Source of the DNA: an uncultured bacterium
Lineage (GTDB): Bacteria > AUK180
Assembly: GCA_937863565.1 (NCBI GenBank)
Contig: CALMGJ010000028.1
Location: 40,802 to 104,801 of the forward strand
Reading direction: 5' to 3'
Length of the DNA: 64,000 nt
The notes under the pieces are model-generated. The model was given only the letters and a program-made list of their open reading frames with translations, was not told where the DNA came from and did no database searches. The first letter of the stretch is position 1. Every line of letters begins with the position of its first letter. Positions 1,925 through 59,465 of this stretch are shown one piece after another. A program made the position numbers and the translations under genes.

Positions 1925-2456
1925 AGTAGAACATCTCCTTTACGGCATTTTTATCCTTTACTTTTTTCATAAAGGAAGGAAGCGTACCCCTTCCCTTTAT
2001 GAAAGTTATCGCTGCGGGAAGCCCGAGATACTTTTTCGCGCCTTCGAGCATCCGGAAATAAATGGGAGAATCCGTCCTAACCGAACTTTTCAATCTCAAA
2101 TATTCCAGATCGTTCTTGAATTGAGCGTTCGTCATCATTTTCGTTTTAAGCGTTTTCCCGGTTAAAAGTTCCGCACCGGGAAGACCGTTTCTTCCCGTGA
2201 TCCCGTAAAACCGTTTAGGCCAGGCCGAAAGGAGCATATATGACGGCAGATCTATCCTTAAAGGACATTCTGCAAGACAGTTCCCGCAAAAACTGCACGC
2301 AAGGGATTCGTTCCGGACGATGCCTTCTTTCAAGATCAGGATCTTCCCTCTAGGCGAGAATACCTGGTCGCGCATCCTTTCGTAAAGCGGGCAGTTGTAG
2401 AGGCATTTCCCGCAGAAAACACAGCGTTCTATGTCGATATTCTCTTTAAAGTTCAT
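1872..2456 (-). CDS. (Fe-S)-binding protein with HdrD/GlcF-type 2x[4Fe-4S] N-domain, lacking CCG domain
   Basis: CVFCGKCLYNCPLY...SPRGK and CSFCGNCLAECP motifs; C-terminal ~110 aa contain no cysteine. Confidence 0.55.
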   Translation of the reverse strand: MNFKENIDIERCVFCGKCLYNCPLYERMRDQVFSPRGKILILKEGIVRNESLACSFCGNCLAECPLRIDLPSYMLLSAWPKRFYGITGRNGLPGAELLTGKTLKTKMMTNAQFKNDLEYLRLKSSVRTDSPIYFRMLEGAKKYLGLPAAITFIKGRGTLPSFMKKVKDKNAVKEMFYYAGGIKGLENEKAGESI

Positions 2457-3849
2457 TGAAATACCTTATCATCCCGTACAATTTGTCGCCCGGACAGGTA
2501 GTGAATTTCTCTGACAGGTCACGATGCCCGTAAACAGGTAATCTTTCCTTCCTTCCCGCTTTTTCAAGGATATAAAGAAGAGATGCCGTCTGGGCGGCGC
2601 CGGGCTCGGTCAGATTGAAATCCCCGATAAGGGCGATACCGAGATTGCCTTCGTTCTTTCCCCGCACATGTGCGCCGGCCGACCGGGTATCCCTTCCTTT
2701 GAATATCTCTCCTTTCCTTCCTATCACGAAATGATATCCGATATCGTCAAATTCCCTTATCCGGATATGATAATCCTTTATCTTCCCGAATATTTCTTTA
2801 TCGTCAGCTTTTCCGAAATTGAACGAATTGGTGTGATGCAGAGTGATCATCTTATAACCGGAGATGTCCATGTTCTCGACCGCGGGGGATTTTATATCCT
2901 TCTCGCGGTATAAAGTAAAATTCTTCCCTTCGAAGATGAAACGGCCGTTTATGAAATCCTTACTCGTCATTTCATTCTTACCGTAAGGCTTCACGCTGAG
3001 TATATCTATACTGCCCTCGCCGCAACGCACGGTAAAAGAATCCTTTCCTACCGCTGTCACCATTCCCGGAAGGGCCTTTCCGGAAGAGCATCCGGATATC
3101 CGGGCTTTGAGGAGTTTAATAGGCCGGCCGTTCAGATACGTGAACGCCTGCGGCCATTCGCAAAATGCGGCGATCGTCCTTTTCACTTTTCCGGCATCGA
3201 GATACCAGTTCACATTGGCCATGTCGGGGCTTAAATACGGCGTATAATCGGTTGCGGTCTCGTCTTGGGGTCTTGCGCTCTCCAGAAGTTCTTCAAGATC
3301 CCTTAAAACATCTGCGATACAATCCCCGGAAAGATCGGTCAATTTTTTCTCTAAAGAGAAATAATCGTCATCTTCAGTGATGACGGCCGTTTTTTCGAAT
3401 ATAACATCTCCCGCATCCATCTTTTCATTCATCCGGATAAACGAAATACCCGTCTTTTTATAACCGTTCAAAAGTGCATATGTTATTGGCGAGGAACCCC
3501 GGAGTTGGGGAAGGAGCGAATAGTGAAGGTTCACGGAAGCGGTCTTGGGCAGAGCGAGAACCTTCCCGGGCAGGATCATCCCGTAAGCAAAAACGAAAAA
3601 TACATCCGCATTCAAGGGTTTAAGAGCCTGGACGAGCGAATCATCCGGTTTTTCCGGGGTCAGCACTGTTATCCCGTTCTTCAAGCAGAACTCTTTCACC
3701 GGGGAGGCTTTCATTTCCCTTTTCCTGCCGGCCGGTTTATCGGGCCTGGTTACCGCGGCCTTGACAATAAAATGTTCATTAAGTTTTTCCAGTATGGTCC
3801 TTGAGACCTCTGGAGTGCCGAAGAAGACGAGACTAATGTTTTTTCCCAT
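2446..3849 (-). CDS. fmt: methionyl-tRNA formyltransferase fused to a C-terminal N-acetylmuramoyl-L-alanine amidase (Amidase_2/PGRP) domain
   Basis: N-terminal ~310 aa Fmt-like (LVFFGTPE..., immediately downstream of def, 17-nt overlap). C-terminal ~150 aa carry DIGYHFVIGRKGEIFKGRDTRSAGAHVRGKNEGNLGIALIGDFN and PVYGHRDL...TTCPG, typical of AmpD/PGRP zinc amidases. Single uninterrupted ORF. Confidence 0.8.
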   Translation of the reverse strand: MGKNISLVFFGTPEVSRTILEKLNEHFIVKAAVTRPDKPAGRKREMKASPVKEFCLKNGITVLTPEKPDDSLVQALKPLNADVFFVFAYGMILPGKVLALPKTASVNLHYSLLPQLRGSSPITYALLNGYKKTGISFIRMNEKMDAGDVIFEKTAVITEDDDYFSLEKKLTDLSGDCIADVLRDLEELLESARPQDETATDYTPYLSPDMANVNWYLDAGKVKRTIAAFCEWPQAFTYLNGRPIKLLKARISGCSSGKALPGMVTAVGKDSFTVRCGEGSIDILSVKPYGKNEMTSKDFINGRFIFEGKNFTLYREKDIKSPAVENMDISGYKMITLHHTNSFNFGKADDKEIFGKIKDYHIRIREFDDIGYHFVIGRKGEIFKGRDTRSAGAHVRGKNEGNLGIALIGDFNLTEPGAAQTASLLYILEKAGRKERLPVYGHRDLSEKFTTCPGDKLYGMIRYFNEL

Positions 3850-4360
3850 TTTTCCCGGCGAGTTCCTTCAAAAGCGGCTTGATCTTCATGTATTCCGTTT
3901 CCGAAAGCCGGTCGATAAAAAGTATACCCATAAGATGATCGTATTCGTGCTGGAACACGACCGCATTCATCCCCCTCAGAGTTTCCCTGATCTTTTCACC
4001 GTTTCCGTTGATATATTCCACTTCGATCTCTTTTGGACGCTCTACGTCAGCGAATATGTCCGGAACTGACAGACAACCTTCCTGATAAACGATCTTATCC
4101 GGTGAGCGCGAGTTGATCTTCGGGTTTATCACGATGCGTTTAACTCCTCCTTCAGTGATGGATGTGTCCATTACGAAGAAATCCTCGAAAATGCCTGTCT
4201 GAGGAGCCGCAAGGCCCACTCCGTCGCGGAGTTTCATGAATTCATAAAAATCCACTGTGAGGAATTTAAGCAGATCGCCGGTTATCTCTTTAATCTCGAT
4301 GCTCCTCTTTCTGAGTTTTTTATCGGGATAAATAAGGACATTTAATTCCTTCTTGGGCAT
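3833..4360 (-). CDS. def: peptide deformylase
   Basis: GVGLAAPQ, EGCLS and QHEYDHL motifs; ATG verified at 4358-4360. Confidence 0.93.
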   Translation of the reverse strand: MPKKELNVLIYPDKKLRKRSIEIKEITGDLLKFLTVDFYEFMKLRDGVGLAAPQTGIFEDFFVMDTSITEGGVKRIVINPKINSRSPDKIVYQEGCLSVPDIFADVERPKEIEVEYINGNGEKIRETLRGMNAVVFQHEYDHLMGILFIDRLSETEYMKIKPLLKELAGKNGKKH

Positions 4361-4366: not shown

Positions 4367-4843
4367 CTACCCTTTCGAAACGGTATTAATGAAATCGTCC
4401 GCCGTTCTCACGCATGTCTCGTTGAATTCCCTGAAATTCGGGAAAGCCGAAACCGCGCCCGGCAAAGCGCCTTTGGCCGACAACATGCTCCTGATCTGCT
4501 CGCCGGCCTTCTGCCAATCATCGCCGCCGAGTGTGAAGAACACATGCACTTTCTTCCCTTCAAGAGGAGCGTGATTGATGAAGAAGTTGACGGCGGGGCA
4601 GGTTTTTCCCGCCCACACGGGAAGTCCGAGGAATATCTCTGCATACGGACCAATATCCTTGAACGGAAGAAGCTTTTCCTCAAGACCCCGGACGGCCTTG
4701 AACCCGCCTACGAAGAAATGCACCAGGCCTCTCCTTTTTTTCTCTTCTTCGAGGCGAATGGTCTCGCAGTTCAACTTCCCGGCAATGTATTCCGCAACCT
4801 TCTTCGTATGACCGGAATGAGAGAAATAGATTGCAATTTTCAT
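4367..4843 (-). CDS. flavodoxin-like protein
   Basis: MKIAIYFSHSGHTKKVA N-terminal flavodoxin signature; 158 aa. Confidence 0.7.
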   Translation of the reverse strand: MKIAIYFSHSGHTKKVAEYIAGKLNCETIRLEEEKKRRGLVHFFVGGFKAVRGLEEKLLPFKDIGPYAEIFLGLPVWAGKTCPAVNFFINHAPLEGKKVHVFFTLGGDDWQKAGEQIRSMLSAKGALPGAVSAFPNFREFNETCVRTADDFINTVSKG

Positions 4844-4846: not shown

Positions 4847-5398
4847 TTACCTTTTGTAGTAAACATCGAAAACGGTTCTTTTTTCGCCCTTGAAATGTTT
4901 ATATTCGATGCTTGAAGCCTTTGCCGAGGTCGAAGCAAGGATCCCTTCCACAAAACCGGCAAAGCGCTCGAAGAAAACATGATTCTCATCCACATTGTCA
5001 AGCTGGAACTGCAGATAATCCTTCCCTGTTTCCGTATGTTTAAGCGTTCCTTCGTCGAAATACTGGCTGAAGATCATCGATGCCCTTTTTAAAGCGTACT
5101 CTGGGGTTGCGATCTTCAAAAATATCCTGTATATTCCCTTCATATTGTTCATTGCTCCGTATTTCGCAGCGTCGCGCAGTATCCGCCTGTTCTTTTCTCC
5201 GTACTTGCGCTGGATGATCTCATTTATTTCGATGAACAGTTCGATAGGATACCAGTTCCCCGGAAAAATATCTCCGTCCGGAAGATGCTTTTTCGATCCT
5301 TCGCCCAGTTCATTGAAGATCTCCGACCATTTCTCCTTGCCGAAATTATCCTCGATGTACTCCTGGCAGTTTTTTATCGATACACCCTTGATGTTCAT
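4847..5398 (-). CDS. uncharacterised 183-aa protein, tandem paralog A (N-terminus H-NOX-like; unverified)
   Basis: Closely similar to adjacent 5417-5968 product; N-term IKGVSIKNCQEYIEDNFGKEKWSEI resembles H-NOX helix A (G..K..Q....FG.E.W..I) but no YxSxR seen. Confidence 0.6.
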   Translation of the reverse strand: MNIKGVSIKNCQEYIEDNFGKEKWSEIFNELGEGSKKHLPDGDIFPGNWYPIELFIEINEIIQRKYGEKNRRILRDAAKYGAMNNMKGIYRIFLKIATPEYALKRASMIFSQYFDEGTLKHTETGKDYLQFQLDNVDENHVFFERFAGFVEGILASTSAKASSIEYKHFKGEKRTVFDVYYKR

Positions 5399-5416
5399 AT
5401 CCGGTTCACCCTTTTT

Positions 5417-5968
5417 TTATTTCGAATATCGCACATCGAAAACAGCTCTTCTGTCGTGCTGCAAATAATCGTATTTTACATCGCAGGATCTTGCAGAAGT
5501 AGATGCGATGACGCCTTCCATATATCCCGCAACGCGCTCGAATATCATCGGCAATTCCGGCACATTTTCGAGATGAAGAACGATGTTCGAGCCGTCGCTT
5601 TTAATGTGTTTCATGTGTCCGAAATCGTAGAATTGACTGAACATCACGGCCGCTTTTTTCACGACGTAATCTACGGTGGCCACTTTCATGAAGATCCTGT
5701 AGACCGTCTTGAGATTGTTCATCGCGCCGTATTTGGCGGCATCGCGAATGATGCGGCCATTGCCTGAACCGTACTTTTTCAGCATTACTTCGTTCACGTC
5801 AACGAATACCCGGACCGGATACCAGTTGCTCGGGAAAACCACTCCGTCCGGCAGATGCTCTTTCGATGATTGCGGCAGGTCCTTTATGATCTCGCCCCAT
5901 TTCTCCTTGCCGTACTTGCTCTCAATGTAGTCCTGACAGTTTTTGATCGATACGCCCTTAACCTGCAT
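5417..5968 (-). CDS. uncharacterised 183-aa protein, tandem paralog B
   Basis: MQVKGVSIKNCQDYIESKYGKEKWGEI...; shares AAKYGAMNN and FERVAGY blocks with paralog A. Confidence 0.6.
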   Translation of the reverse strand: MQVKGVSIKNCQDYIESKYGKEKWGEIIKDLPQSSKEHLPDGVVFPSNWYPVRVFVDVNEVMLKKYGSGNGRIIRDAAKYGAMNNLKTVYRIFMKVATVDYVVKKAAVMFSQFYDFGHMKHIKSDGSNIVLHLENVPELPMIFERVAGYMEGVIASTSARSCDVKYDYLQHDRRAVFDVRYSK

Positions 5969-5979: not shown

Positions 5980-6537
5980 TTAGTCTTTATCGATGCATCC
6001 GCGGCAGCGCGCTTCGTAGATATCGCCCGCGCCGACGAGGATCTGCTCGTCGCTTTTCACGATCCTTTTCGTTTTCGTGGCGGGATTCCCGCATTTCACA
6101 CAGATCGCCTGCGTCTTGCTCACCTGGTCAGCAACGGCCATCAGTTCGGGTATGGGTCCGAACGGTTCTCCCCTGTAATCCTGGTCCAGGCCCGCAACGA
6201 TCACCCGGATATTCCTTTTCGCAAGCTCTTTGACCGTTTCGATGATCCCCTTATCGAAGAACTGGGCTTCGTCTATGCCTACGACCTCGGTGCCGGGTTC
6301 AACGTATTTCATTATCTCGCCCGAATTCGCAATATTTATGGCTTTCATCTTCTGGTACGAATGGGATACCACATAGGCCTCATCATACCTTTTGTCGATC
6401 TCCGGTTTGAAGATCACAACTTTCTTCTTCGCGATCTCCGCCCTTCTAAGCCTTCTTATGAGCTCTTCGGATTTTCCGGAGAACATGCAGCCCGCGATGA
6501 CTTCTATCCATCCCATTTCCTTAGGAATGAAATTCAT
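5980..6537 (-). CDS. tdk: thymidine kinase
   Basis: P-loop CMFSGKSEEL, VIGIDEAQFF, C-terminal zinc ribbon CVKCG...CRGC. Confidence 0.92.
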   Translation of the reverse strand: MNFIPKEMGWIEVIAGCMFSGKSEELIRRLRRAEIAKKKVVIFKPEIDKRYDEAYVVSHSYQKMKAINIANSGEIMKYVEPGTEVVGIDEAQFFDKGIIETVKELAKRNIRVIVAGLDQDYRGEPFGPIPELMAVADQVSKTQAICVKCGNPATKTKRIVKSDEQILVGAGDIYEARCRGCIDKD

Positions 6538-7904
6538 ATCTTCTCCTCTTCTATATTGTAAGACTTTATCTTGTTTATCAGGGTCGCCCTCGATATGCCG
6601 AGCGCCTGCGCGGCCTTCGTATGGTTGTTATTGTATTTTTTCAAATTCGCGATCACCGCCTGCCTCTCTATCTCGGACAGCGGCACATCTGCGCTTATCC
6701 CTTTTCCGTTACCGTTCCCCCTCCTTGGCTTGGCGATGCCCGCGATATAATCGGGAAGCATCCCGGGTTCTATGGCGCCGCCGTTATTGAAGACCACGAT
6801 ATGCTCGATGAGGTTCTTGAGTTCCCTGATATTCCCCGGCCACGCATATTCATTCATAAGTTTCACCGTCTCTTTGGAGAAAGTGAAGAGCGGTTTCTGG
6901 TACTTGCGGGAATAGTCGATCATGAAGAAATTGGCAAGAGGATATATGTCCGCAGGCCTGTCCCTCAATGCGGGAATGTCTATCTGCACCACCTTGATCC
7001 TGTAATAAAAATCCTCCCGGAACTTCCCTTCCTCGATGAGTTTTATAAGATCTTTGTTCGTCGCGAAAACGATGCGCGTATCGATCTTTTTAACTTCGGT
7101 GCTCCCGACAGGCGTTATCTCCTTCGACTCCAAGAACCTCAGAAGCTTCACCTGGGTAAAAAGGGAGAGCTCGCCTATCTCGTCCAGAAAGAGCGTGCCG
7201 CCGGCGGCCAGCTCGAATTTGCCCTTTTTAGACGATACGGCGCCCGTAAAAGCGCCTTTCTCGTGACCGAACAGTTCCGATTCCAGAAGCGTCTCGGGGA
7301 GCGCCGAGCAGTTTATCGGGATAAGGGGTCCGTCGCGCCGCTGCGAATTGTAATGAATGGTCCGGGCTATCACCTCTTTGCCCGTGCCCGATTCCCCGGT
7401 AAGAAGCACATTGGCGTCCGTCGGCGCGATCTGCTTTATCTTGCTTATGATCGTTTCCATTTCGGAAGAGGCGAAAATGATATTCTCGAAATTGTACCTG
7501 TCGAGAAGTTTCTCCTTGAGGTTTTTTACCTCCTTCTGAAGTCCGAGCTTCTCATAGGCCTTCTCTACGAAGATCTCCAGTTCCTCTAATTTGAACGGCT
7601 TCATCAGGTACTGGTAGGCCCCGCTTTTAATGGCCTCGATGGCCACATCTATCGACGACACCCCGGTGATGACTATGATCTCCCCGTTCTTCCCCGAACC
7701 TTTCAGTATCTTGATAAGTTCCATACCGCTTTTATCCCTCAGATTGAGATCGGTCACGACCACGTCGAAATCGTTCTTCTTGAGAAGTTCCAGCGCGTCC
7801 TCGACGGAATCCGCTCCCTCCACAAAGTCCTTCTTGAACCTGAAGTAATCGATGACGGACTGCCTTATCCCGGCATTATCCTCTACGATCAGAAGTTTTC
7901 TCAT
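6534..7904 (-). CDS. sigma-54-dependent response regulator (NtrC family: REC + AAA+ + Fis-type HTH)
   Basis: LLIVEDN...VVVTDLNL receiver; GESGTGKE Walker A; ESELFGHEKGAFTGA GAFTGA motif; C-terminal HTH AAQALGISRATLINK. Track start 7913 is TTG; ATG at 7904 preferred. Confidence 0.9.
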   Translation of the reverse strand: MRKLLIVEDNAGIRQSVIDYFRFKKDFVEGADSVEDALELLKKNDFDVVVTDLNLRDKSGMELIKILKGSGKNGEIIVITGVSSIDVAIEAIKSGAYQYLMKPFKLEELEIFVEKAYEKLGLQKEVKNLKEKLLDRYNFENIIFASSEMETIISKIKQIAPTDANVLLTGESGTGKEVIARTIHYNSQRRDGPLIPINCSALPETLLESELFGHEKGAFTGAVSSKKGKFELAAGGTLFLDEIGELSLFTQVKLLRFLESKEITPVGSTEVKKIDTRIVFATNKDLIKLIEEGKFREDFYYRIKVVQIDIPALRDRPADIYPLANFFMIDYSRKYQKPLFTFSKETVKLMNEYAWPGNIRELKNLIEHIVVFNNGGAIEPGMLPDYIAGIAKPRRGNGNGKGISADVPLSEIERQAVIANLKKYNNNHTKAAQALGISRATLINKIKSYNIEEEKI

Positions 7905-8565
7905 AAACCTCAAGGTCCTCCGGAAAATCGAATTTGAATACCGTTTTCATATCGTTCGAAATAAAATCTATATTTCCTTTCAGATGCTCCGCGAAGCGCT
8001 TGGAGATGGCAAGCCCCATACCGCTCCCCTGCTCCTTCGTCGTGAACATCGGCTCGAATACGCGATCCCTCAGGCCCTCCTCTATCTTCGGCCCGGCATT
8101 CTCAACGCTGAACATGATGCTCTCGCCTGTCTTTACCGTGGAGATGAGTATCTCGGAACCCTCATTGCAGGCCTCTATGGCGTTTTTTACAAGGTTCATT
8201 ATCACGGTCTGAACCTTGAAACCGTCCTGGTTCACCGCGCCTATCTGAAGATCGAAAGCGAGTTTCACTCTCGCGCCTTTCTCGTTTATATAGCCCTGAA
8301 GGTCGTCCACGATCTCCTTGATCATCAGGTGCAGATCGAACCTCTTCACATCGTTCTCCGTTTTCTGGAAAAGGTTAACATTGCGCGCCATCTCATAGAG
8401 CTTGTCGGCCTGGACGAGAAGTTTTGAAAGCAGGCGTTTTTCTATCTCGTTCTTCTCGGGGCTCTTATCATAGGCCTTTTTCAAAAATTGGAGATTGAAG
8501 ATGATCGGCTGCGCCGCGTTCTTGATCTCGTGGATGAGGTATTTCAGAGTATCTTTTTCGTCCAT
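7876..8565 (-). CDS. histidine kinase lacking any sensor/TM domain (DHp + HATPase_c only)
   Basis: H-box LIHEIKNAAQP near N-terminus; G-boxes EQGSGMGLAISK; 229 aa; overlaps the regulator start. Confidence 0.8.
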   Translation of the reverse strand: MDEKDTLKYLIHEIKNAAQPIIFNLQFLKKAYDKSPEKNEIEKRLLSKLLVQADKLYEMARNVNLFQKTENDVKRFDLHLMIKEIVDDLQGYINEKGARVKLAFDLQIGAVNQDGFKVQTVIMNLVKNAIEACNEGSEILISTVKTGESIMFSVENAGPKIEEGLRDRVFEPMFTTKEQGSGMGLAISKRFAEHLKGNIDFISNDMKTVFKFDFPEDLEVYEKTSDRRG

Positions 8566-8925
8566 ACTGCGTATTATAGCAAAAAAATAGAAAATGTAAA
8601 AATATTTTACACTCCGATAAGGTGAAATATCTCACATTTATTTTAATATTGGACATTAATGGAAATCCTTAAAAATAGGGATTTTATCCGTGAAAACCGC
8701 CTATCCGTGGCCTTTTTGCTTTATTCTGTTCGTATCATCTGCATTTTCATTATTCACTGCGCTTCGCATAACTCTCAACTTATTTAGACAGTTCACTATT
8801 CACTTCGTTTCGGCCGACTTTCAACTGTCAACTCTTTCTCTATCTTCTCTTTTATCGTTCATTATTCATTATTCTTAGATTGTGACGTTATGTAAAATAT
8901 AAAGACCAGGTACCTTCACATTTAC

Positions 8926-9456
8926 TTATTTAGGTTTTATCGACGTATATTTTCTAAATTCAGGATCGCCATTCTTATAATTTGTATTTTCATAATATGG
9001 AACTATTTCTTTAAATGGTGATTTAAATTTCTGATAATATCTCTTACCTTTAAATTTACATACAATAATTGGTTTCGAATCTTCACTATCACAGTCTCTT
9101 ATATATTCAATCCACTCAAATGGAACTATACCAACAGGAATATTTCCACCTTTTTTGTCGAGAATAAATTGAACTCCATATTCTTGAATAATCGTGTAGA
9201 GTTCTGCGCCCTGTTTATAGTAGGTATTGTTTGTTTCATCTTTTCGTTCAGCATTATACTTTTTGACATCTGCAAGAATTATTTTTTTATACAATACAAT
9301 CTCTCGAATTTGCTTAGTTATTTTCATCTCATGTTCATATTTTTCTCTTGCTGATATTTGCTGTGTTAACGCGTATAGATGATACCCTACGAACACACCG
9401 ACAATTATCGCGATTAATGCTATTAGATTATCCCAAAAATAAAACGTAAAGTCCAT
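8926..9456 (-). CDS. hypothetical single-pass membrane protein (AT-rich island)
   Basis: N-terminal TM NLIALIAIIVGVFVGYHLYAL; N/K/Y-rich composition; ATG verified at 9454-9456. Confidence 0.55.
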   Translation of the reverse strand: MDFTFYFWDNLIALIAIIVGVFVGYHLYALTQQISAREKYEHEMKITKQIREIVLYKKIILADVKKYNAERKDETNNTYYKQGAELYTIIQEYGVQFILDKKGGNIPVGIVPFEWIEYIRDCDSEDSKPIIVCKFKGKRYYQKFKSPFKEIVPYYENTNYKNGDPEFRKYTSIKPK

Positions 9457-9543
9457 TTAATCCCACTCTTCATAATAGATTGTGTTACTTTCATCTATCG
9501 CGCCCAAAAACATATTTTTCCAGACATGTATTTTCACGCGGAA

Positions 9544-10707
9544 CTATCTATTCCCTTTTGCCTGATTATGCGTTTTGCACAGCATTTGGCAATTAGCGGC
9601 ATCCGTAGCGCCTCCTTTGCTCCATGCTGTAACATGATCCGCGTCCATTTCATTTAATTTCCAGACCTTGCCTTTATTGGCATCGTGGCCCAGTGCGCAT
9701 AGCGGGCAATTTGAATGGCCGTTCCTTTCGGCTTCTTCCGTTTGCTTTGCATAAACGGTCTTCTTTGTGGCATCGTCAAATACCCTTACATTGAGTAGTT
9801 TTGTCTCTTTGGACCCTCCGAGAATATATTCAAATATCCCCTTCCGGTTTTTGATATACGGATCCCCGTAGAGTTCTTTCACCTGATCGGATACGGCTTT
9901 GGGATCATATGAATTCTTATGATATTTTTCATAAAGCCTGCCCCACTCCAATCCTTTCATCTCGCTTTCCACATCAATGAATACGCCCGATACCCAATCT
10001 ATGACGCTATTGAAATAAACTTTCAGTTCTTTAATATTATCGTCATAACGGTGCTTGCTCATATATTCACCGATATTGCCTTTGCTTACCCAATCCAGCG
10101 CGCATTCCATAAATTGCTGGCGGTTCACGCTTCCCGATATATAGGCGCTCCATTTCTGGATATTGGAATTTTGACTATTGCTGAACTCTTCCTTCCCCAA
10201 AGTAACAAATGGGCCCGAATAAACGGCATTGAGCAGTTCCTGGTCATTAAGCGGAACGCCCGCGATATTGATAGTTCTAAACCATTCTTTTATTTCGCTT
10301 TCCGTGCCTTCGCATTCATAGATGAGAAGATTGGTATTCAAGATCTTATCCTGTTTGTCCTCTGCTATCCCGCTGAAATACTGCTCCATCCCGTTCTCGT
10401 CTTTGACGGCGAACTTATTGGTAACGAAACGGCCGAAACTCGTGATGCGCTGTTGGCCGTCCAATACTTCGAGCTTATCCTCGCTTACTTTATTGAAATA
10501 GATCAATCCGAGAGGATAACCCTTGAGCAGCGATTCGATAACGGCAACATCCTTTTTGCCGTCCGCATAAATATAATTACGCTGATACTCCGGCTGTATC
10601 GTCAATCGCCCCGATAGACCGAAAAGACCCTTGCCTTCCAGTTCATTATAAACAAAACCATCGCAGATGTCTTTTACGGTGATGTCGATCTTTAAATTTG
10701 TTCTCAT
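9544..10707 (-). CDS. DUF262 (ParB-like, DGQQR) domain fused to C-terminal HNH endonuclease; GmrSD-like nuclease
   Basis: IQPEYQRNY and [12 protein letters not shown] in N-domain; C-terminal CPLC...[32 protein letters not shown] is a canonical HNH; ATG 2 nt downstream of methyltransferase stop. Confidence 0.8.
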
Positions 10708-10709
10708 TT

Positions 10710-11765
10710 TTATTTCCTGTGTTTAATTAGAATTCGAAAATATGGGCAGGCACCGTTTTTTAATCGCAAATCCTTTTCATCATTTCCATGCCTGAATTTT
10801 ATAATCTCAAACTGCTCCGGTGAATATTTGTCCAGAAAACTGATCGGAACTCCCATCACTCCGTCATAATCGCTCGGTATGGCATCCGTAAACGGGACCT
10901 CTATGGCATCATAATTGTCATATTTTTGATATTCCTTTCCCTTGATCTCTTTATGTTTGCTGTATTTTATATTGTCTTCCATTGTCATCAGGGGCAATGG
11001 TTGGTGACGCCTTCCATGATCAAGATTGGTGAACCAACGAACGCCTTTAATCCGCAAGAATTTATTCCCGTCTTTGTCAATTCTCCACCCGGCGGCAGTT
11101 ATTGGATAATCATCCGGCACTTGAAATTCTCTATCTCCGCTTCTAATACTTGGGCCGAGCCACATTCTATCACTTTTTATCAAAGGAAATACTTCTTTGT
11201 ATGTAATTGAATTCATATTCCCAATAATTAAAAATTGCTTTTCCCATTCCGTAATCCATGCCAGAAATTCCCTGAACAATGAAAAAGGCGGATTGGTAAT
11301 AATGATATCTGCCTCATCGCGTAATTTCGTAACTTCTTTGCTTCGAAAGTCGCCGTCCCCTTCCATATAATGCCATTCCAGGTCATCCACATCTATTTTG
11401 CCGTTCCCTGTTCTATCGTGATTTAATATAAATATCTTTCCGTTCTTGGCGGTTTTATTCTTGTCGAATTTAGGGTCGCTTGTTTCAAATAAAGTGGGTT
11501 GATAATTGGATTTACATTTTTTACTTTCCGCAGCATAACTCGTGCTTATGAGTTTTTTCAGCCCGAACCTGTGGAAGTTCTGAGCAAAGTACTTGGTAAA
11601 ATTGCTCCATTCGGGATCATCGCAGGGTAATAAAAGCGTCTTACCGCGGAATACATTGTGATCATACTCTATATACGCATTGATCTCTTTTTCTATATCA
11701 TTGTATTGAGTATAGAACTCATCGTTTTTCGCATTTTTAGCATTTGATAAATTGCTATTCGCCAT
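10710..11765 (-). CDS. N6-adenine DNA methyltransferase, EcoRI-methylase-like family
   Basis: KNDEFYTQ near N-terminus and IITNPPFS (motif IV); family assignment from memory of EcoRI methylase. ATG verified at 11763-11765; track start is an upstream extension. Confidence 0.65.
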
Positions 11766-11923
11766 AATATTATTATAATACTTTCCCCCGTATATTTCAA
11801 ATCTTTTCTTAATGAAAAAGAGGGACGTTGGTTGAAAAAGGTGAAATTTCCATATTGTTTCATGCAATCTTGATTTCAGCGCGGATTTCGTTATAATATT
11901 ACGGAACAGGGAAATGTTTTAAA

Positions 11924-12771: not shown

Positions 12772-12790
12772 CTTGGCACAGGCATTGCTT
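12772..12790 (+). promoter_or_regulatory. sigma-54 (RpoN) -24/-12 promoter
   Basis: TTGGCACaggcaTTGCT at 12773-12789 (TGGCAC-N5-TTGC spacing as in consensus), ~30 nt upstream of hsp20 ATG at 12818; GGAGG RBS at 12808-12812. Confidence 0.7.
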
Positions 12791-12817: not shown

Positions 12818-13153
12818 ATGAGAGCATACAATGAACTCGACCTTAATGTAAAAATGATCAAGGACCGGATCGAGATCAGCGTGGAAGTCCCCGGACTCAA
12901 CCGCGACGATATCGATATCATGGTCTTCGGTAATCTTTTCCGTATAGTGGCTAAATATCCCGAGTTCACGGATAACGACCGCTTCCTTCTGAAGGAGATA
13001 AGAAGGAACGGAACGGTGGAGCGCGAGTTCAGGCTCGATCAGCCCGTAGATACCGGCAAGATAAGCGCCGAATTAAAAGGCGACGGCATTCTCAGAATCA
13101 CTCTTCCGCTTACCAGGGAAGAAAAGAAAATAATAAACATCAGGGAGGTGTGA
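12818..13153 (+). CDS. Hsp20/alpha-crystallin small heat-shock protein
   Basis: alpha-crystallin domain, GILRITLP motif. Confidence 0.85.
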   Translation: MRAYNELDLNVKMIKDRIEISVEVPGLNRDDIDIMVFGNLFRIVAKYPEFTDNDRFLLKEIRRNGTVEREFRLDQPVDTGKISAELKGDGILRITLPLTREEKKIINIREV

Positions 13154-13154
13154 T

Positions 13155-13604
13155 ATGAAGATCAGAAAATTTTACGATGACGACGGAGTGTTCAAGAAGC
13201 TCGCCAGGCTTGAGAATTTCTTCAGTGATGTCTTCGAGGACGGGGATTTCAAATCTTCACCTCTGGTTCAGACGAACTGGGCGCCGAAGATCGACATCAA
13301 GGAGAAAAAGGATTCCTACGAAGTGACGGCGGAATTCCCGGGAATGAACAAGGAAGACATAGAAATCTCGCTCGAGGACAATATCCTTGTTTTCAAGGGA
13401 GAGAAGAAATTCGAGGAGAAAAAGGAGGAGGATAACTACCTCCACATAGAAAGGTCCTACGGTAATTTCTACCGCTCTTTCAAACTCCCCGAAGCGATCG
13501 ATACGGAAAAAGTCGATGCTTCATTTAAAAACGGCGTTCTGCATCTCGTTCTTAAGAAAAAGCCCGAAAGCAAGGGCAAGAAGATCGAGATCAAAGGCGA
13601 GTAA
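13155..13604 (+). CDS. Hsp20/alpha-crystallin small heat-shock protein
   Basis: SYGNFYRSFKLP...GVLHLVLKK alpha-crystallin motifs. Confidence 0.88.
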   Translation: MKIRKFYDDDGVFKKLARLENFFSDVFEDGDFKSSPLVQTNWAPKIDIKEKKDSYEVTAEFPGMNKEDIEISLEDNILVFKGEKKFEEKKEEDNYLHIERSYGNFYRSFKLPEAIDTEKVDASFKNGVLHLVLKKKPESKGKKIEIKGE

Positions 13605-13664: not shown

Positions 13665-15605
13665 ATGGCACAGAAAAAAGTGATCGGTATCGACCTCGGT
13701 ACCACGAACTCATGCGTAGCGGTAATGGAGAACGGACAGCCCAAAGTACTTTACAATACTGAAGGATCCAGAACAACGCCGTCCGTCGTCGCTTTCAAGG
13801 ATAACGACGAGATCATAGTCGGCGCGGCCGCGAAGAGACAGGCAATAACCAACCCTTTGAATACGGTATTCTCGGTAAAAAGGCTCATAGGCCGTTCTTA
13901 TGAGGAAATAAACGAAGAACTGAAACTGATCTCGTACAAGGTATCCAAGGGCAAATCCCAGAATGTCCTCCTCGAGATCGGCAATAAGAAATATACGCCT
14001 CAGGAGATATCCTCGATGGTACTCAAAGAAATGAAGAAGATCGCCGAGGATTATCTCGGAGAAAAAGTCGAGGACGCGGTCATAACAGTGCCGGCATATT
14101 TCAACGATTCCCAAAGGCAGGCGACGAAGGACGCAGGCAAGATCGCCGGGCTTAATGTGCTTCGTATTATAAATGAGCCCACTGCAGCGGCGCTTGCTTT
14201 CGGCGCCGACAAGAAGAAGGATGTTAAAATAGCCGTATACGACCTCGGCGGCGGCACCTTCGATATCTCCATTCTTGAGATCAATGAAGGCGTTTTCGAA
14301 GTGAAATCCACCAACGGCGATACCCATCTCGGCGGCGACAACTTCGACCTTGCGATTTTGAACTGGATAGCCGATTCGTTCAAGAAAGAGAAAGGCATCG
14401 ACCTTACTAAGGACCCGATACCGCTACAGAGATTGAGGGATGCGGCGGAGAAGGCCAAGATCGAACTTTCTTCGAAGCTCGAAACGGAGATAAATCTGCC
14501 TTTCGTTACAGCGGATGCCAACGGCCCGCAGCACCTGCAGATGACGCTTTCCAGGGCAAAATTCGAGAATCTCGTAACGGATCTCATCGAGAAATCCATA
14601 GAACCGTGCAAGAAAGCGCTCAAGGATGCGAAGACCTCCGCCAAAGACATTGATGAAGTACTTCTCGTCGGCGGAATGACCAGAGTGCCGATGGTGCAGA
14701 AGAAAGTGGAGGAATTCTTCGGTAAAAAACCGAACAAAGGCATCAACCCCGACGAAGCGGTTGCGGTCGGCGCGGCGATCCAGGGTTCGATCCTTGCCGG
14801 GGACAAGACGTCGGGCGACATTCTGCTCGTTGATGTTACTCCCCTGACCCTCGGCATTGAAACGCTGGGCGGAGTATCAACTCCCCTCATAACGCGCAAT
14901 ACGCCTATTCCTACAAAGAAATCCGAAATCTTCACAACGGCGGACAATAATCAGCCGGCGGTCGATATCAGAGTGCTTCAGGGCGAGAGACCCATGTCTG
15001 CGGATAATAAGCTCATCGGGCAATTCCAGCTTGCAGGCATACCCCCTGCGCCGAGAGGCATACCGCAGATCGAAGTAACTTTCGATATCGACGCAAACGG
15101 CATTCTCCATGTCACAGCAAAAGATAAGGCCACCGGAAAGGAACAGACGATCAAGATACAAGTCTCAAGCGGTCTTTCAGATGCCGAGATAGACAAAATG
15201 GTCAATGAAGCCAAGGAACACGAGGAAGAGGACAAGAAAAGGCGCGAGCTCATCGAAGCACGCAATAAGGCCGAATCGCTTATATACCAGACGGAGAACC
15301 TTCTCAAGGAGATGAAAGAGAACAATAAGCTTGATGCGAAGGAAGGCCAGGAATTGAGCGAAAAGATCGAGAAATTGAAAGAGGTGGCTAAAGGCGAAAG
15401 CAAAGAGGCCATAGAAAAATCTATAGACGATCTTTCGAAATTCTTCGCGGGCATATATCAGAAATACGGTCAGACAGCTGGACAACCCGGAGGCAATGCG
15501 GGTCCCGGTCCTGAAGCCGGCACTCAGCCTGAGAGCGGCGCGGGCCCTGAAGGTCCAGAAGCCAAGAAAGACGACGTCATAGACGCAGATTTCGACGAGA
15601 AATAG
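13665..15605 (+). CDS. dnaK: molecular chaperone DnaK (Hsp70)
   Basis: [33 protein letters not shown] signatures; 646 aa. Confidence 0.97.
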
Positions 15606-15657: not shown

Positions 15658-16716
15658 ATGGAAATAAAAGATTATTATAAAGTTCTCAATGTCCCCGAAA
15701 GCGCCACGCTCGATGAGATCAAAAGGTCATTTCGCGAACTTGCAAAAAAATACCATCCTGATATTAACAAGGCACCCGATGCCGAAGCAAAATTCAAGGA
15801 AGTAAACGAAGCCTATCAGATCCTCTCCGATCCCGACAAGAAGATAAAATACGACGAATACAAAAAGTACGGCGGTAATCCTTTTGCGGGCGGAGGAGGA
15901 GGCGGGGGCAGCGCGCAGGATATTTTTGCCGATCTTTTCGGAGGAGGGTTCAGATCGGGAGGAGTTGAGGATATTTCAGACCTTTTCTCGGGTTTCTTCG
16001 GAGGCGGAGAGAGGAGGAATTCATACGAGGACCTTGCCATCCATATCCAGATCACGCTCACTTTCGAAGAATCCTATTCCGGTACGGAAAAATATATATC
16101 CTTCAACCGGGCCTCTCCTTGCGCATTCTGCGGGGGAAGCGGCGCGACGGAAAAAACAGCCTGCCCTCACTGCAAAGGGAGAGGCAGCATCGCCAGCAAC
16201 TCCGGTTTTTTCTCAATGCAGAGAACTTGCCCTTACTGCAAAGGCACGGGAAGCATTGCCAAGACCAAATGCAATGTTTGCCAGGGTACCGGAAAGAAGC
16301 ATATCACTGAAAAGAAAGCGGTTAAAATACCTTCCGGAGCAAGGACGGGAGACAAACTTACGATAAAAGGTCTGGGAAATTCCGAGAACGGCATGGCCGG
16401 GCCTTTGGTGATCCATATTGCCGTTATGAGCTCTCCCGTTTATTCCCGCGAAGGCAATAATCTCGTGCTGAACCTTAAAATAGATCTGAAGCAGGCGCTT
16501 GCAGGAGATAAAGTGAAGATAAGGCATTTCGGAAAGGAACTGACCGTCACGATCCCCCCGGGGACCAATAACGGGGATGTGCTTTCATTGCGGGGCATGG
16601 GAATGAAACGCGGGCGCGATGCGGGCAACCTTCACCTTAAGATCTCTCTCACGCTTCCGAAGAAACTCACAAAGAAACAGAAGGATAAACTCGACGAATT
16701 CCTGAAGACCCTGTAA
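15658..16716 (+). CDS. dnaJ: DnaJ-family co-chaperone (J domain, G/F region, 4x CxxCxGxG zinc finger)
   Basis: DYYKVL...YHPD J domain; glycine-rich linker; CAFCGGSG, CPHCKGRG, CPYCKGTG, CNVCQGTG. Confidence 0.85.
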   Translation: MEIKDYYKVLNVPESATLDEIKRSFRELAKKYHPDINKAPDAEAKFKEVNEAYQILSDPDKKIKYDEYKKYGGNPFAGGGGGGGSAQDIFADLFGGGFRSGGVEDISDLFSGFFGGGERRNSYEDLAIHIQITLTFEESYSGTEKYISFNRASPCAFCGGSGATEKTACPHCKGRGSIASNSGFFSMQRTCPYCKGTGSIAKTKCNVCQGTGKKHITEKKAVKIPSGARTGDKLTIKGLGNSENGMAGPLVIHIAVMSSPVYSREGNNLVLNLKIDLKQALAGDKVKIRHFGKELTVTIPPGTNNGDVLSLRGMGMKRGRDAGNLHLKISLTLPKKLTKKQKDKLDEFLKTL

Positions 16717-16726: not shown

Positions 16727-18013
16727 TTATTTCATAGTTTTAAGAAGCTCTCTCGTCTTTTTAAGCCAGAACCTTGAATCCATGGCCAAGAAAGCATCTT
16801 CCGCCTTTCCGGCATATCTCTTCGCCTCAGCGGGACGGAAGACTCTCAAAGCCGAAGCCAGTTCGTAAAGCGTGATGCCGAATTCAAAGCGGTTTCTCAT
16901 TTTTCCGGCAACGGATACGGCCTTTTTCAGACAGCCGACTGCGATTTTTTCCGGAGCGTTTCTGCGCAATTTCGCTTTGCACCTGAGATAAACGATCTCC
17001 GCTTCCTCGTTTCCGTATTTCGCAAGAAGTATCCCCGCCTTCTTAAGATACTCTTCCGCTTTCATTTTATCGTCCGCGGCATGAAACGCTTCCGAGAGAG
17101 CCGCATAGACTACAGGGAGATGTGCCTCAGCCCCGCATGAAGAAAAGCTTTCCTCCGCCATTATCAGCAGGCCGGCGGCTTTCCCCGGCATGTCTCTGTG
17201 AAGATATATCATGCCCATACTGAAATGTGCGAATCCGGCGCCGATCCTGTAACCTACCTGTTCGGATATCGAAAGGCATCGTTTGAAACTCTCCTCGGCG
17301 GTCTTCAGTTTTCCCAGATTGAAATATGTCTGCCCGATGTTGCCTTCGATGCTTGCCAGCCCCATTCTGTAATTCACTGCCTTGAACGTATCCTTTGCTT
17401 TCATGTAATATTTCAACGCTTCGGGCAGTTCGCCGACAGTCCGGCAGATTATTCCGATATTGGTATTTGCGATCGCGGTTCCCATCCTGTCCTTCAGTTC
17501 TTCCGAGTTTTTAAGCCTCTTTTCCAGATACTTCAGCGCGAGGCCGTATTTTCTTTTGTTCCAATAAATAAGTCCCGTTATATTGTAGGCGATCCCGAGA
17601 TTGATTTTATCGCCCGTTCTGATGAATATATCCCGTGCTTTCCTGCTGTGTTCCAAAGCTTTGTCGTACTCGCCTCTTTCCCACTCGATAGTGGAAAGGA
17701 CATGGAGGCCGTACGCGAAAAGTTTGGGATCCTTCCGCGAACCGATATAACGGAAACCTCTGCCGAGCAGTTTCAGGGCTTCAACATGGTTTCTTTTCCC
17801 CCGGTCGAAAATATTGGCAAGATCGAAGCTTATTTTGGCAGTCAGTGACCGGTCTCTGATGTTCTGTTTTCTACATATTTGAAGTGAAAGTTCAAGGTCG
17901 CTTATAGCTTTGTCCGTATTCCCAATGATGTCGTACACAAGGCCGCGGAGGCTCAGAGCACGCGCATAGAGCATTCCCGGGGCCTTAGCCGTACTTCTGC
18001 GGTTAAAGTTCAT
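16727..18013 (-). CDS. TPR-repeat protein
   Basis: repeated AxxNxGxxYxxxGxxxxAxxYYxKA units. Confidence 0.8.
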   Translation of the reverse strand: MNFNRRSTAKAPGMLYARALSLRGLVYDIIGNTDKAISDLELSLQICRKQNIRDRSLTAKISFDLANIFDRGKRNHVEALKLLGRGFRYIGSRKDPKLFAYGLHVLSTIEWERGEYDKALEHSRKARDIFIRTGDKINLGIAYNITGLIYWNKRKYGLALKYLEKRLKNSEELKDRMGTAIANTNIGIICRTVGELPEALKYYMKAKDTFKAVNYRMGLASIEGNIGQTYFNLGKLKTAEESFKRCLSISEQVGYRIGAGFAHFSMGMIYLHRDMPGKAAGLLIMAEESFSSCGAEAHLPVVYAALSEAFHAADDKMKAEEYLKKAGILLAKYGNEEAEIVYLRCKAKLRRNAPEKIAVGCLKKAVSVAGKMRNRFEFGITLYELASALRVFRPAEAKRYAGKAEDAFLAMDSRFWLKKTRELLKTMK

Positions 18014-18621
18014 TCTTCTCCGCCCGGCAGTTCATTACTGCAGGCCGGGCAGACCGTTTTCCCGTCCTTTTTTTTAAGATAAGGTTCCGCCGTTTTCTCA
18101 CCGCAGATATCGCATCTTCCGGAAACGAATATCCTCGCTGTTCCGGGCATTTTTCCCACAGGACGGCCGAGCTTTATATATTTCTCTTCCGGATCCGTCA
18201 ATATCCTTTTGATCCTTCTTTCCTTGATCTCACTCTTCTCTTTCCTTTCGGAATCCGTAAGTACGTCTTTTTTCGCAAGTTCGATAAAGCGTTTGTCGTC
18301 ATCGTCGTCTTTATAGTACGGTTCCGCATATATCCTCACGCCTTTACCCGTCTTGCGGTTGTAGAACGTGTAAACATTCTTACCGCGGTCCCTGATGATA
18401 AGGTTCCCCTTCCCCGCCGTGCAGCCGCATATGATCTGTATGGCGTCTATGCCGCAGGCGCCGTTCTCCACGACAGCTACGAATTCTTCATCATCCGCCC
18501 GACCGGATGAAAGTTCTCTTAGCGCTATCGTTGCCACTCTGTACCCGACGGCAAGTCCGGGGCAGGAATGCCCGTGAAATTTCACGGCGTCCTTGAACGA
18601 TGCTGATTTTTTATTTCCCAT
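18010..18621 (-). CDS. FmdE-family protein with C-terminal zinc ribbon
   Basis: FHGHSCPGLAVGYR motif; C-terminal CDICG...CPAC. Confidence 0.7.
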   Translation of the reverse strand: MGNKKSASFKDAVKFHGHSCPGLAVGYRVATIALRELSSGRADDEEFVAVVENGACGIDAIQIICGCTAGKGNLIIRDRGKNVYTFYNRKTGKGVRIYAEPYYKDDDDDKRFIELAKKDVLTDSERKEKSEIKERRIKRILTDPEEKYIKLGRPVGKMPGTARIFVSGRCDICGEKTAEPYLKKKDGKTVCPACSNELPGGEE

Positions 18622-19606
18622 TCTCCGTCTCCTTTGAAAGGCGGCTTACCAGTTCTGCGCGGTCCTTCCAGCCAAGTTTATTAAAGATCTCCGCCGCTTT
18701 AGCCAGATTGTCTTTTCCGGTCATCTTGCCCGTCATCCGGAAAAGTTTTTCCGCATATTTTTCCGCTTTCTTTATTTTATCGGATTCGATGATTGTCTGA
18801 ATTAAGTTAATAAAACTCTCTTCCTCGCCGCTGCGGTCGTTTATCTCGTGCCTGATATGAACCGCTTTCTCAAGAAAAGAAACAGCATCGGACGAGTTCC
18901 CGGAAAGGGCAAGCAATCGCCCGAGATTATTGAGATTCACAGCCTGTCCGTACTTGTCCCCTATCCTGATTCTGATTTCAAGCGATCTTTTAAAACAACC
19001 GATAGCCCCTTTATAATCCTTTTTTAAATAACACAGATAACCGACATTATTACAGTTGCTTGCTTCACCCTTCAAATCCCTATATTTCACACATATCGTA
19101 AGGGAATCGCTAAAACACTCATGTGCAGATGAATAATCCCTGAGAATATTGTAAATAACGCCCTTATTATTCAGTATTAAAGCCGCTGTTTCCGGATCAT
19201 GACTTTTCTTCGCGGCGGCATATGCTTCCGAATAACATTGAAGAGCCTTTTGATGAGCACCCAGTTTTTTATAAGCGACACCCAAAGAATTCAAGCAATT
19301 CACAGCACTCTTTTTCAATCCCGCTTTCTTCATAAGTGATAGGGCTGCTTCTTCTATTCTCAGCATTTCAGAATCTTTACCAAGAACCCCTTTTATATGA
19401 CCTATCTCCATCATACATACGGACTCGTTTATAGGATCATCGATCCTGCGCGATATCCTCAACGCTTTTTTCAAGTCTTCAAGAGCCCGGAAAGGTCTTC
19501 CCGTCAGTTTATACAAGTTGGCCCGCATTCTGAGAGCACGGCAGTATGTTTTAAGGTCTTTTATCTTATATTTATTTTTCAACGGGACCAGCGGACGACA
19601 AGGCAT
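18611..19606 (-). CDS. TPR-repeat protein
   Basis: TPR units throughout. Confidence 0.8.
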   Translation of the reverse strand: MPCRPLVPLKNKYKIKDLKTYCRALRMRANLYKLTGRPFRALEDLKKALRISRRIDDPINESVCMMEIGHIKGVLGKDSEMLRIEEAALSLMKKAGLKKSAVNCLNSLGVAYKKLGAHQKALQCYSEAYAAAKKSHDPETAALILNNKGVIYNILRDYSSAHECFSDSLTICVKYRDLKGEASNCNNVGYLCYLKKDYKGAIGCFKRSLEIRIRIGDKYGQAVNLNNLGRLLALSGNSSDAVSFLEKAVHIRHEINDRSGEEESFINLIQTIIESDKIKKAEKYAEKLFRMTGKMTGKDNLAKAAEIFNKLGWKDRAELVSRLSKETENGK

Positions 19607-44990: not shown

Positions 44991-45201
44991 CCAGCAAGCT
45001 TTTTAAAAGATCCAGGACCTCTTCGGCCTCCTTTTCACCTATCATCTCTATCGAAAAACCGGCGTGAACCAGTACATGATCGTTCTTTTTCACGCCCGGC
45101 GTGAAAGCGGTGTTTATCAATATCCTGGCACCGTGGATGAGCGCTTCCGCGTGCTGCGCATCAATGATCTTTTTTATCTTTACCGGAATTGCAAGACACA
45201 T
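44971..45201 (-). CDS. hypC: hydrogenase assembly chaperone HypC
   Basis: MCLAIPVKI N-terminus; track ORF extended upstream into hypF. Confidence 0.85.
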   Translation of the reverse strand: MCLAIPVKIKKIIDAQHAEALIHGARILINTAFTPGVKKNDHVLVHAGFSIEMIGEKEAEEVLDLLKSLLDDEKRK

Positions 45202-45205
45202 ATGT

Positions 45206-47452: not shown

Positions 47453-47457
47453 ACGCC

Positions 47458-49583: not shown

Positions 49584-49918
49584 TCATTAACCTCCACATA
49601 TTCGATGTTCAATTCCCTTCCTTTTACTATTTCAACGTCCCGGGAAGGACATTCGGGGCATTGAAGGACGAACCTGTCCTTAAGTACCGCACCGGCACCG
49701 CATTTTCTGCATCTTACGGACACCTTCACTCTTTTGATCTTGAGTTCCGCATCTTCCAGGGCGGTCCCTTTCTTTGCTATATCGAAAGAGAAACGCAACG
49801 CCTCAACTGAAACGCCTGATATATCCCCGACAGCCATCTTAAGCGCCCTGATCTTTTTATCCGGCACTTTTTCCGTGATGATATCGAATATATTCATGAC
49901 GATGCTCAGTTCGTGCAA
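49580..49918 (-). CDS. hypA: hydrogenase nickel-insertion protein HypA
   Basis: MHELSI N-terminus; CRKCG...CPEC zinc site. Confidence 0.9.
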   Translation of the reverse strand: MHELSIVMNIFDIITEKVPDKKIRALKMAVGDISGVSVEALRFSFDIAKKGTALEDAELKIKRVKVSVRCRKCGAGAVLKDRFVLQCPECPSRDVEIVKGRELNIEYVEVND

Positions 49919-54178: not shown

Positions 54179-54190
54179 ATGAAGCCTCCC

Positions 54191-55084: not shown

Positions 55085-55093
55085 ATTCTTCCC

Positions 55094-59458: not shown

Positions 59459-59465
59459 AAGGTTC

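Follow-up and report, generated by a model that had tools for sequence, protein, structure and literature searches.

The gene pair and its predicted fold

Two adjacent minus-strand genes, here called A and B, lie in a window of 64,000 nucleotides from an uncultured bacterium (GTDB lineage Bacteria; AUK180; assembly GCA_937863565.1, contig CALMGJ010000028.1, positions 40,802 to 104,801 of the forward strand), the window being the whole stretch of DNA that we analyzed. Each is an intact open reading frame (ORF) for a protein of 183 amino acids, and the two form part of a string of genes that runs from a histidine kinase and an NtrC-type regulator through tdk to B and A, and on to a flavodoxin-like gene, def and fmt (Table 1). 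Structural modelling, together with sequence comparison, places A and B very probably within the H-NOX/V4R superfamily, as members without a canonical heme site and without a zinc site. The reading that we favor, at a probability of about 0.6, is that they are stand-alone, cofactor-less proteins of the H-NOX/V4R fold that would sense a small ligand, the kinase of the same string being a candidate partner.

A and B align end to end without gaps, with 52% identity and 78% similarity (BLASTP, E = 2e-81), and their similarity, judged from this alignment, far exceeds chance. Their DNA is 63% identical, with 43% identity at third codon positions, which are nearly randomized; we estimate a ratio of nonsynonymous to synonymous substitution rates (dN/dS) of about 0.18, with dS close to saturation. 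Thus, the duplication is old and both copies have been maintained by purifying selection. An AGGAG sequence stands 7 nt 5' of the ATG of B. The original prediction, made from the letters of the DNA, had described two adjacent 183-residue paralogs between tdk and a flavodoxin gene, and both the pair and, by Pfam, its two neighbors are as described. It had also quoted a shared N-terminus, which A and B indeed have in the form M-x-[IV]-KGVSIKNCQ-x-YIE-xx-[FY]GKEKW-x-EI, and three shared blocks; AAKYGAMNN and VFDV are present in both proteins, but FERVAGY is found only in B, the corresponding sequence in A being FERFAGF.

A first AlphaFold run, with the two paralogs as its only alignment, gave a mediocre model (predicted local distance difference test, pLDDT, of 69.9) and is superseded by a run with a 19-sequence alignment, which produced a confident one (pLDDT 92.2; predicted template modelling score, pTM, of 0.88). 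The predicted fold comprises seven helices and a four-stranded antiparallel sheet, which follow one another as in H-NOX domains (PMC8196705), and divides into the two subdomains of the H-NOX fold, with an N-terminal "distal" helical subdomain (αA–E) predicted to pack on a C-terminal "proximal" one made of αF, αG and the sheet. The α/β core of the V4R/Bet3 fold is also recognizable in the model. The top structural matches of the A model are H-NOX proteins, those of S. oneidensis (score 16.1; 166 residues, 2.9 Å), K. algicida (15.2) and Nostoc (14.9), together with sGC β1 (13.4); the N-terminal domain of VirS (11.0), YslB (10.7), TRAPP/Bet3 subunits (9–10), BcsD (9.1), the V4R protein MJ1460 (9.1), PoxR (8.3) and DmpR (7.9) score lower.

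The Pfam HNOB model matches only the N-terminal half of either protein, with 16.0 bits for A (E = 0.012) and 15.3 bits for B (E = 0.019), and neither reaches its gathering score of 25.5 bits. No V4R match was obtained for A or B at E ≤ 1 (Pfam; gathering score 31 bits), and neither matched the DUF2378 or TIGR02265 models (thresholds 22.2 and 25 bits, respectively). Searches of A and B against NCBIfam, PADLOC and PHROGs gave nothing significant, and a defence or phage role was rejected on the PADLOC and PHROGs results. Searches of PDB sequences, with a profile of the pair or with a profile of 89 aligned family sequences, found no significant match. Four H-NOX sequences, each verified against the PDB, served as references: three are residue-for-residue identical to the chains 2o09, 6jt0_B and 2kii, and the fourth corresponds over its full length to wild-type 1u4h (415 bits). 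Against these four, a profile of the family aligned over 161 columns with a probability of 82% (E = 1.1e-5), and a larger family profile over 174 columns with a probability of 61% (E = 8.3e-5). The pair keeps the structural glycines of H-NOX: G5, G20 and G148 correspond to Tt G3, G18 and G143. Thus, the original prediction, which proposed an H-NOX-superfamily-like domain, possibly non-heme, and regarded the family assignment as uncertain, is supported as essentially correct: HNOB matches below threshold over the N-terminal half, and an H-NOX-like predicted fold rather than a confident unrelated one, bear out the first part, and the absence of heme ligands, documented below, the second.

The heme and zinc positions

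The residues M1, G3, G18, F78, D99, H102, P115, Y131, S133, R135 and G143 (Tt numbering) do not vary among the four verified H-NOX sequences. The Y-x-S-x-R motif of H-NOX binds the heme propionates, and the proximal His, carried on αF, is His102 in Tt H-NOX and His105 in sGC β1; this His is absolutely conserved in 598 H-NOX homologs (PMC7108781). A and B have neither the proximal His nor Pro115 nor the Tyr-Ser-Arg clamp of the propionates, and in this differ from the H-NOX proteins of PF07700, including SO2144/HnoX, Nostoc Alr2278, Tt H-NOX and sGC β1. The equivalent of Tt His102 is T118 in A and H118 in B in one alignment register and a gap in the other; column 118 is variable, with His in one of the 89 sequences, and the αF-equivalent segment (residues 99–117) has no His in A or B, whatever the register. 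Family-wide, the αF-equivalent columns have His in at most 5 of the 89 sequences, and the αF region is shorter than in H-NOX, by a gap of 6 or 14 residues depending on the profile comparison. In place of Y-x-S-x-R the alignment shows LDNVDENH for A and LENVPELP for B, and the regular expression Y.S.R found 0 matches in A, B and the 89 aligned relatives, in agreement with the original prediction, in which no such motif had been seen. Canonical heme binding is therefore excluded, and membership of the canonical heme H-NOX proteins was rejected because the defining residues, the proximal His and YxSxR, are missing.

It could still be argued that A and B are genuine heme-binding gas sensors (NO/O2) of the H-NOX type, with non-canonical ligation through H121, on strand β1, and/or C11, in helix αA. 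The full-length predicted fold is H-NOX-like, and both residues are invariant between the paralogs; H121 replaces a Val/Ile/Leu column and is found only in the pair (2/89), and C11 and H38 are common to A and B and not to their nearest relatives. However, the residues invariant in verified H-NOX sequences for heme attachment are all missing, and H121, C11 and H38 are unconserved even in the four nearest relatives (P0003, P0004, P0008 and P0009), so that we regard this explanation as highly improbable. In a very improbable variant of the furthest-reaching reading given below, C11 and H121, unique to the pair, would face the pocket and form a new metal or heme ligation in an H-NOX fold.

A second cofactor site of the superfamily is represented among the relatives by the motif C-x21-[H/E]-x2-C-x7-C, present in 26 of the 89. 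A profile of this cysteine-bearing subgroup reached MopR in the PDB (7vqf; E = 0.0055), as no other profile did, and the four motif positions align residue for residue with what we take to be the MopR zinc ligands, numbered C155, E178, C181 and C189 after the alignment. The spacing of the motif is that of MopR and of S. oneidensis H-NOX, and since it is shared in this way the zinc site would seem to be ancient and optional in the superfamily as a whole. In MopR the structural zinc site consists of three Cys and one Glu (PMC10715001), and in S. oneidensis H-NOX it consists of C139, H161, C164 and C172 (PMC7108781). A has one cysteine and B two, none at these positions, which are occupied in the pair by F143, Y166, F/L169 and T/A175. 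The ligands are also absent from P0003, P0004, P0008 and P0009. Going by these alignments, the pair has lost a zinc site found in some relatives, and there is precedent for such a loss in mouse TRAPPC3, where the site is replaced by a hydrogen bond (PMC10933270). Membership of A and B in the zinc-binding V4R proteins was rejected, all four ligand positions being substituted.

Relatives of the pair and their gene contexts

Searched exhaustively with HMMER, 1.84 billion representatives yielded 1,137 matches to the pair profile at E ≤ 1e-3, of which 195 had E ≤ 1e-10; E ≤ 1e-30 was reached only by the pair's own cluster and by P0003. Among the 150 best relatives, lengths are almost without exception 180–190 residues, and the family consists mostly of stand-alone proteins of about 185 residues. 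A hidden Markov model of the family recognizes A (E = 9.6e-61) and B (E = 5.2e-60), and the pair is linked to the relatives used for the consensus at E = 1e-20 to 1e-27 (hmmsearch). Individual relatives match V4R (15 of 89, at E ≤ 0.01), HNOB (14 of 89) or DUF2378 (7 of 89), and the family consensus passes V4R over residues 132–183 (36.6 bits; cut-off 31) and HNOB over the N-terminal 95 residues only (30.5 bits; cut-off 25.5). Full-length matches above the cut-offs of DUF2378 (22.2 bits) and TIGR02265 (25 bits) were obtained with the cysteine-bearing subgroup, whose consensus scores 33.9 and 38.2 bits, respectively; for all 89 sequences together, the consensus exceeds the DUF2378 cut-off, at 25.3 bits, and at 24.9 bits falls marginally short of that of TIGR02265. 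The consensus of a six-member cysteine-less alignment that includes A and B matches neither model. HNOB, V4R and DUF2378, which the original prediction had named as the profiles to search, are thus all matched by the family consensus.

On these profile comparisons, the family is a broad extension of DUF2378/TIGR02265, and A and B form a distant cysteine-less branch of it. DUF2378/TIGR02265 has been described as being exclusive to myxobacteria and as having no known function (PMC9257966), whereas the family found here is far broader: relatives occur in Bacteroidales metagenome-assembled genomes (MAGs), in unclassified MAGs, which contain the nearest ones, and in many metagenomes. Proteins of DUF2378 (PF09536)/TIGR02265, also called "Mxa", are stand-alone, about 180–200 residues long and have the same end-to-end architecture as A and B, but A and B themselves match neither model and lack the Cys/His zinc motif of the best-matching subgroup. 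A first genome scan yielded no relative, and a metagenome scan, of contigs that were mostly short, none above 34% identity. A word-indexed protein search returned only A and B with A as the query, 18 proteins with the 89-sequence profile and four with the cysteine-less profile, and none of these proteins bore any source name but "hypothetical protein". Aromatic or hydrophobic residues are conserved family-wide at W49, Y50, Y90, F93, Y113, W/F/Y149 and W/Y181, and conserved glycines align with the "FG" glycine of H-NOX (G78, found in 74 of the 89 sequences and replaced by Ala in A and B) and with G143.

In this way, two unannotated genes, together with a family that comprises over 1,000 representative clusters and is barely covered by Pfam, find a place in the H-NOX/V4R superfamily, of which the family bridges the two best-known branches, its N-terminal half being HNOB-like and its C-terminal half V4R-like. 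From the V4R branch (PF02830; the phenol sensors MopR/PoxR/DmpR, archaeal MJ1460, and MsvR, with TRAPPC3/Bet3 as eukaryotic descendants), the window proteins differ in their longer N-terminal subdomain of the H-NOX type, and they lack both a Pfam V4R match and zinc ligands. For annotation, it follows that such genes should not be named "heme NO-binding"; for H-NOX research, they offer examples from nature of the fold as a separate, heme-free protein. That an H-NOX fold should be heme-free is in itself unsurprising and does not overturn current understanding: both the pseudo-H-NOX domain of sGC α, which is heme-free, and the heme-free H-NOX of Vibrio cholerae (Vc) function without heme (PMC8196705; PMC7108781). 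The sGC α domain pairs with a paralogous β domain but, unlike A and B, belongs to a larger enzyme of several domains. In its heme-free form Vc H-NOX continues to regulate the kinase HnoK (PMC7108781), signalling by oxidation of the cysteines of its zinc site, which are missing from A and B.

The family domain also occurs in a chemoreceptor, P0135, a finding that speaks for a sensor role. This protein of 709 residues (HAMP and MCPsignal) has the domain, zinc motif included, at the far C-terminal end (residues 538–693); in a Tt chemoreceptor the H-NOX domain is N-terminal, the reverse arrangement. Such a fusion does not fit the proposal that A and B are structural or adaptor subunits, using a fold of the V4R/TRAPP/BcsD type for assembly only, within an obligate A–B complex without ligand. 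Maintenance of both duplicates is consistent with an obligate complex, but the family gene is single-copy in 50 of the 51 related loci collected in two scans, and we consider a purely structural role unlikely. The exception is a Bacteroidales MAG (L012; CAYQWX010000028.1) with three copies in a row, of 185 residues each, at 7407–9135 on the plus strand; as it is the only other array among the 51 loci, tandem arrays are rare and have arisen independently.

The gene contexts were compared by BLAST of 11 window neighbors against the ORFs of the first 28 of these loci and by a Pfam census of 70 neighbors in 22 genome loci. The only window neighbor to recur in the first 28 loci is the NtrC-type regulator, which stands divergently beside the family gene in L006, and the census brought out no dominant partner family among the 70 neighbors. 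With neither conserved synteny nor a dominant partner, guilt by association gives little. In four Bacteroidales loci the family gene lies downstream of relA/spoT, three of the RelA/SpoT proteins being 81–83% identical to the fourth. In two related unclassified MAGs (L007, 660–2891; L008, 7869–10442) the closest cysteine-less relatives stand tail to tail with hcp (Pfam Prismane, E = 3.9e-162). The hybrid-cluster protein is linked to NO and hydroxylamine stress, and its adjacency could hint at a nitrosative-stress link, which would suit heme-binding gas sensors, or be a coincidence; the two genes are convergent, and the arrangement is confined to these two related MAGs, which counts against that explanation.

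The gene string, possible partners and the rest of the window

The genes from the kinase to fmt are separated by gaps of at most 18 nt or overlap, as do the start of tdk and the stop of the regulator gene (ATGA), and no terminator-like site or hairpin was found on the minus strand from the kinase until inside fmt. The string, in the order histidine kinase, response regulator, tdk, B, A, flavodoxin-like gene, def and fmt, may thus be read as a single long transcription unit; 5' of the kinase lies the best-scoring sigma70-like site of the region, identified by consensus match only, at which the string may begin (Table 1). In the kinase the H-box begins at residue 12, and there is neither an input nor a transmembrane domain. 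The enzyme must be constitutive or controlled in trans. The regulator combines a receiver, an AAA+ domain and a Fis-type helix-turn-helix.

Table 1. Coordinates of the gene pair and of other features of the window
Feature	Position	Strand	Remarks
fmt, formyltransferase + Amidase_2 fusion	2446..3849	-	Pfam Formyl_trans_N, Formyl_trans_C, Amidase_2
def, peptide deformylase	3833..4360	-	named from sequence alone
Flavodoxin-like	4367..4843	-	Pfam Flavodoxin_4 35.4 bits, Flavodoxin_5 34 bits, both above gathering score
Paralog A	4847..5398	-	183 aa, intact ORF; predicted H-NOX fold, stand-alone, without heme ligands or zinc-site cysteines
Paralog B	5417..5968	-	183 aa, intact ORF
tdk, thymidine kinase	5980..6537	-	Pfam TK, E = 2.8e-55; between regulator and paralogs
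NtrC-type sigma54-dependent response regulator	6534..7913	-	Pfam Response_reg, Sigma54_activat (E = 1.3e-70), HTH_8
Histidine kinase, 229 aa	7876..8565	-	Pfam HATPase_c, residues 116-216 only; YLIHEIKNA at residues 9-17
Sigma70-like promoter candidate	8573..8600	-	TTTACA-16-TATAAT, extended TG; 11/12 consensus matches; 5' of kinase
GmrSD_N + HNH protein	9544..10707	-	Pfam
EcoRI-type adenine methyltransferase	10710..11867	-	Pfam
Sigma54 -24/-12 consensus, TGGCACAGGCATTGC	12774-12788	+	exact match
Hsp20-like	12818..13153		downstream of the (+) site; named by eye
Hsp20-like	13155..13604		downstream of the (+) site; named by eye
dnaK	13665..15605		downstream of the (+) site; named by eye
dnaJ	15658..16716		downstream of the (+) site; named by eye

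A and B are probably sensor or carrier proteins for a small ligand. A small and probably hydrophobic ligand would bind in the cleft between the two subdomains, as ligands do in H-NOX, V4R and TRAPPC3 (PMC8196705; PMC10933270); the cavities of V4R and TRAPPC3 proteins bind phenols and palmitate (PMC10933270). By analogy with these proteins, we hold it rather likely, though far from certain, that ligand binding is the function of A and B. Occupancy might then shift the subdomains as rigid bodies about a glycine hinge and so alter the binding of a partner, as in H-NOX, which inhibits the autophosphorylation of HnoK, even when heme-free, through surfaces on αA–C and αF and a glycine hinge (PMC7108781). 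The best candidate partner would be the input-less kinase of the string together with its sigma54 regulator, in a parallel with the inhibition of HnoK by H-NOX. The kinase is encoded in the same tight string, with two genes between it and the paralogs; this arrangement is not conserved in related loci, and a partnership between A/B and this kinase, drawn by analogy, is possible but doubtful. A and B themselves may act as a homodimer or heterodimer. V4R proteins form homodimers, TRAPPC3 and C6 a heterodimer, and the H-NOX domains of sGC α and β a pair.

Several observations weigh against the favored reading and the kinase partnership. The window proteins share only 9–17% sequence identity with H-NOX, and the register of αF differs between the two profile–profile comparisons. 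The closest relative outside the pair, P0003, is only 34% identical, so that inferences made at the level of the family transfer loosely to A and B. In none of the first 28 loci does tdk or a flavodoxin gene stand beside the family gene, and a response regulator lies within two genes in only 5 of the 22 scanned genome loci; one of the five is the locus with the NtrC-type regulator, and the other four are apparently closely related Bacteroidales genomes with a convergent HisKA_3/LuxR pair. In the window the kinase is not an immediate neighbor of the pair, as it is separated from it by two genes, one of them the housekeeping gene tdk, and def and fmt follow. Co-location with the kinase may therefore reflect only a compact genome.

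On the other side of the pair, the ATG of the flavodoxin-like gene lies 3 nt past the stop codon of A, so that translation of the two is likely to be coupled; the flavodoxin-like protein has a weak match to an NCBIfam flavodoxin subfamily. This coupling would suit a role for A and B outside signalling, in which, like BchJ, they would handle a substrate, a tetrapyrrole or some other hydrophobic, redox-active metabolite, as its carriers or chaperones, together with the flavodoxin-like protein. In both of the better-known superfamily branches the molecules handled are tetrapyrroles or hydrophobic ligands (PMC8196705; PMC10933270), and the cysteine-bearing subgroup has a consensus that can be aligned with BchJ (TIGR02019) from end to end, if weakly (E = 0.0012; 18.7 bits, cut-off 74.3). 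However, this similarity is far below threshold and comes from a subgroup that excludes the window pair; flavodoxin is not among the 25 most frequent neighbor families in the 22 loci, and the first 28 loci contain no homolog of the window flavodoxin. Moreover, no tetrapyrrole biosynthesis genes were identified in the annotated neighborhood (1.3–11.9 kb). On balance, we think a carrier function of this kind improbable, and return to the favored reading of A and B as cofactor-less ligand sensors.

A possible target of such a sensor lies 5 kb away. The sequence TGGCACAGGCATTGC, the only exact match to the sigma54 -24/-12 consensus in the 64 kb, where 0.09 would be expected by chance, is found about 30 nt 5' of two small Hsp20-like ORFs followed by dnaK and dnaJ. 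From this site, the chaperone operon may be sigma54-dependent, possibly under the NtrC-type regulator. Taken furthest, the favored reading would make A and B a heme-free, zinc-free heterodimeric sensor of a hydrophobic or redox cue that acts through the input-less kinase and the sigma54 activator on the promoter of the hsp20-hsp20-dnaK-dnaJ operon. We regard this chain as very improbable in its entirety; if true, the circuit would amount to a new way of inducing chaperones through an accessory sensor.

Some further features of the window deserve mention. In fmt, methionyl-tRNA formyltransferase is fused to a C-terminal N-acetylmuramoyl-L-alanine amidase domain in a single ORF of 467 residues, a combination of formyltransferase and Amidase_2 that is, to our knowledge, unusual. 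Directly upstream of the kinase operon, the stretch 8900–11900 (minus strand) has a low GC content, of 0.40 as against about 0.47–0.50; with its GmrSD_N + HNH protein and its methyltransferase, it is probably an inserted restriction/defence islet. Rfam gave no match in the whole window at gathering thresholds. Three tandem ORFs at 32019–35293 (minus strand), of about 360–380 residues, have in common the N-terminal motif F(F/Y)xALWERxELY, and several further ORFs, at 16727–18013, 18611–19606, 23002–25931 and 28672–29733 (minus strand), look TPR-like by eye; judged by motif and appearance, these ORFs appear to be an expanded paralogous family. Finally, two minus-strand regions, at 42947–50367 and 53408–61791, contain by eye a hydrogenase maturation cluster (hypE/D/F/B/A-like) and an ORF resembling the large subunit of NiFe hydrogenase, as well as heterodisulfide-reductase-like and 2-oxoacid:ferredoxin oxidoreductase-like genes, which together suggest that the host is anaerobic.

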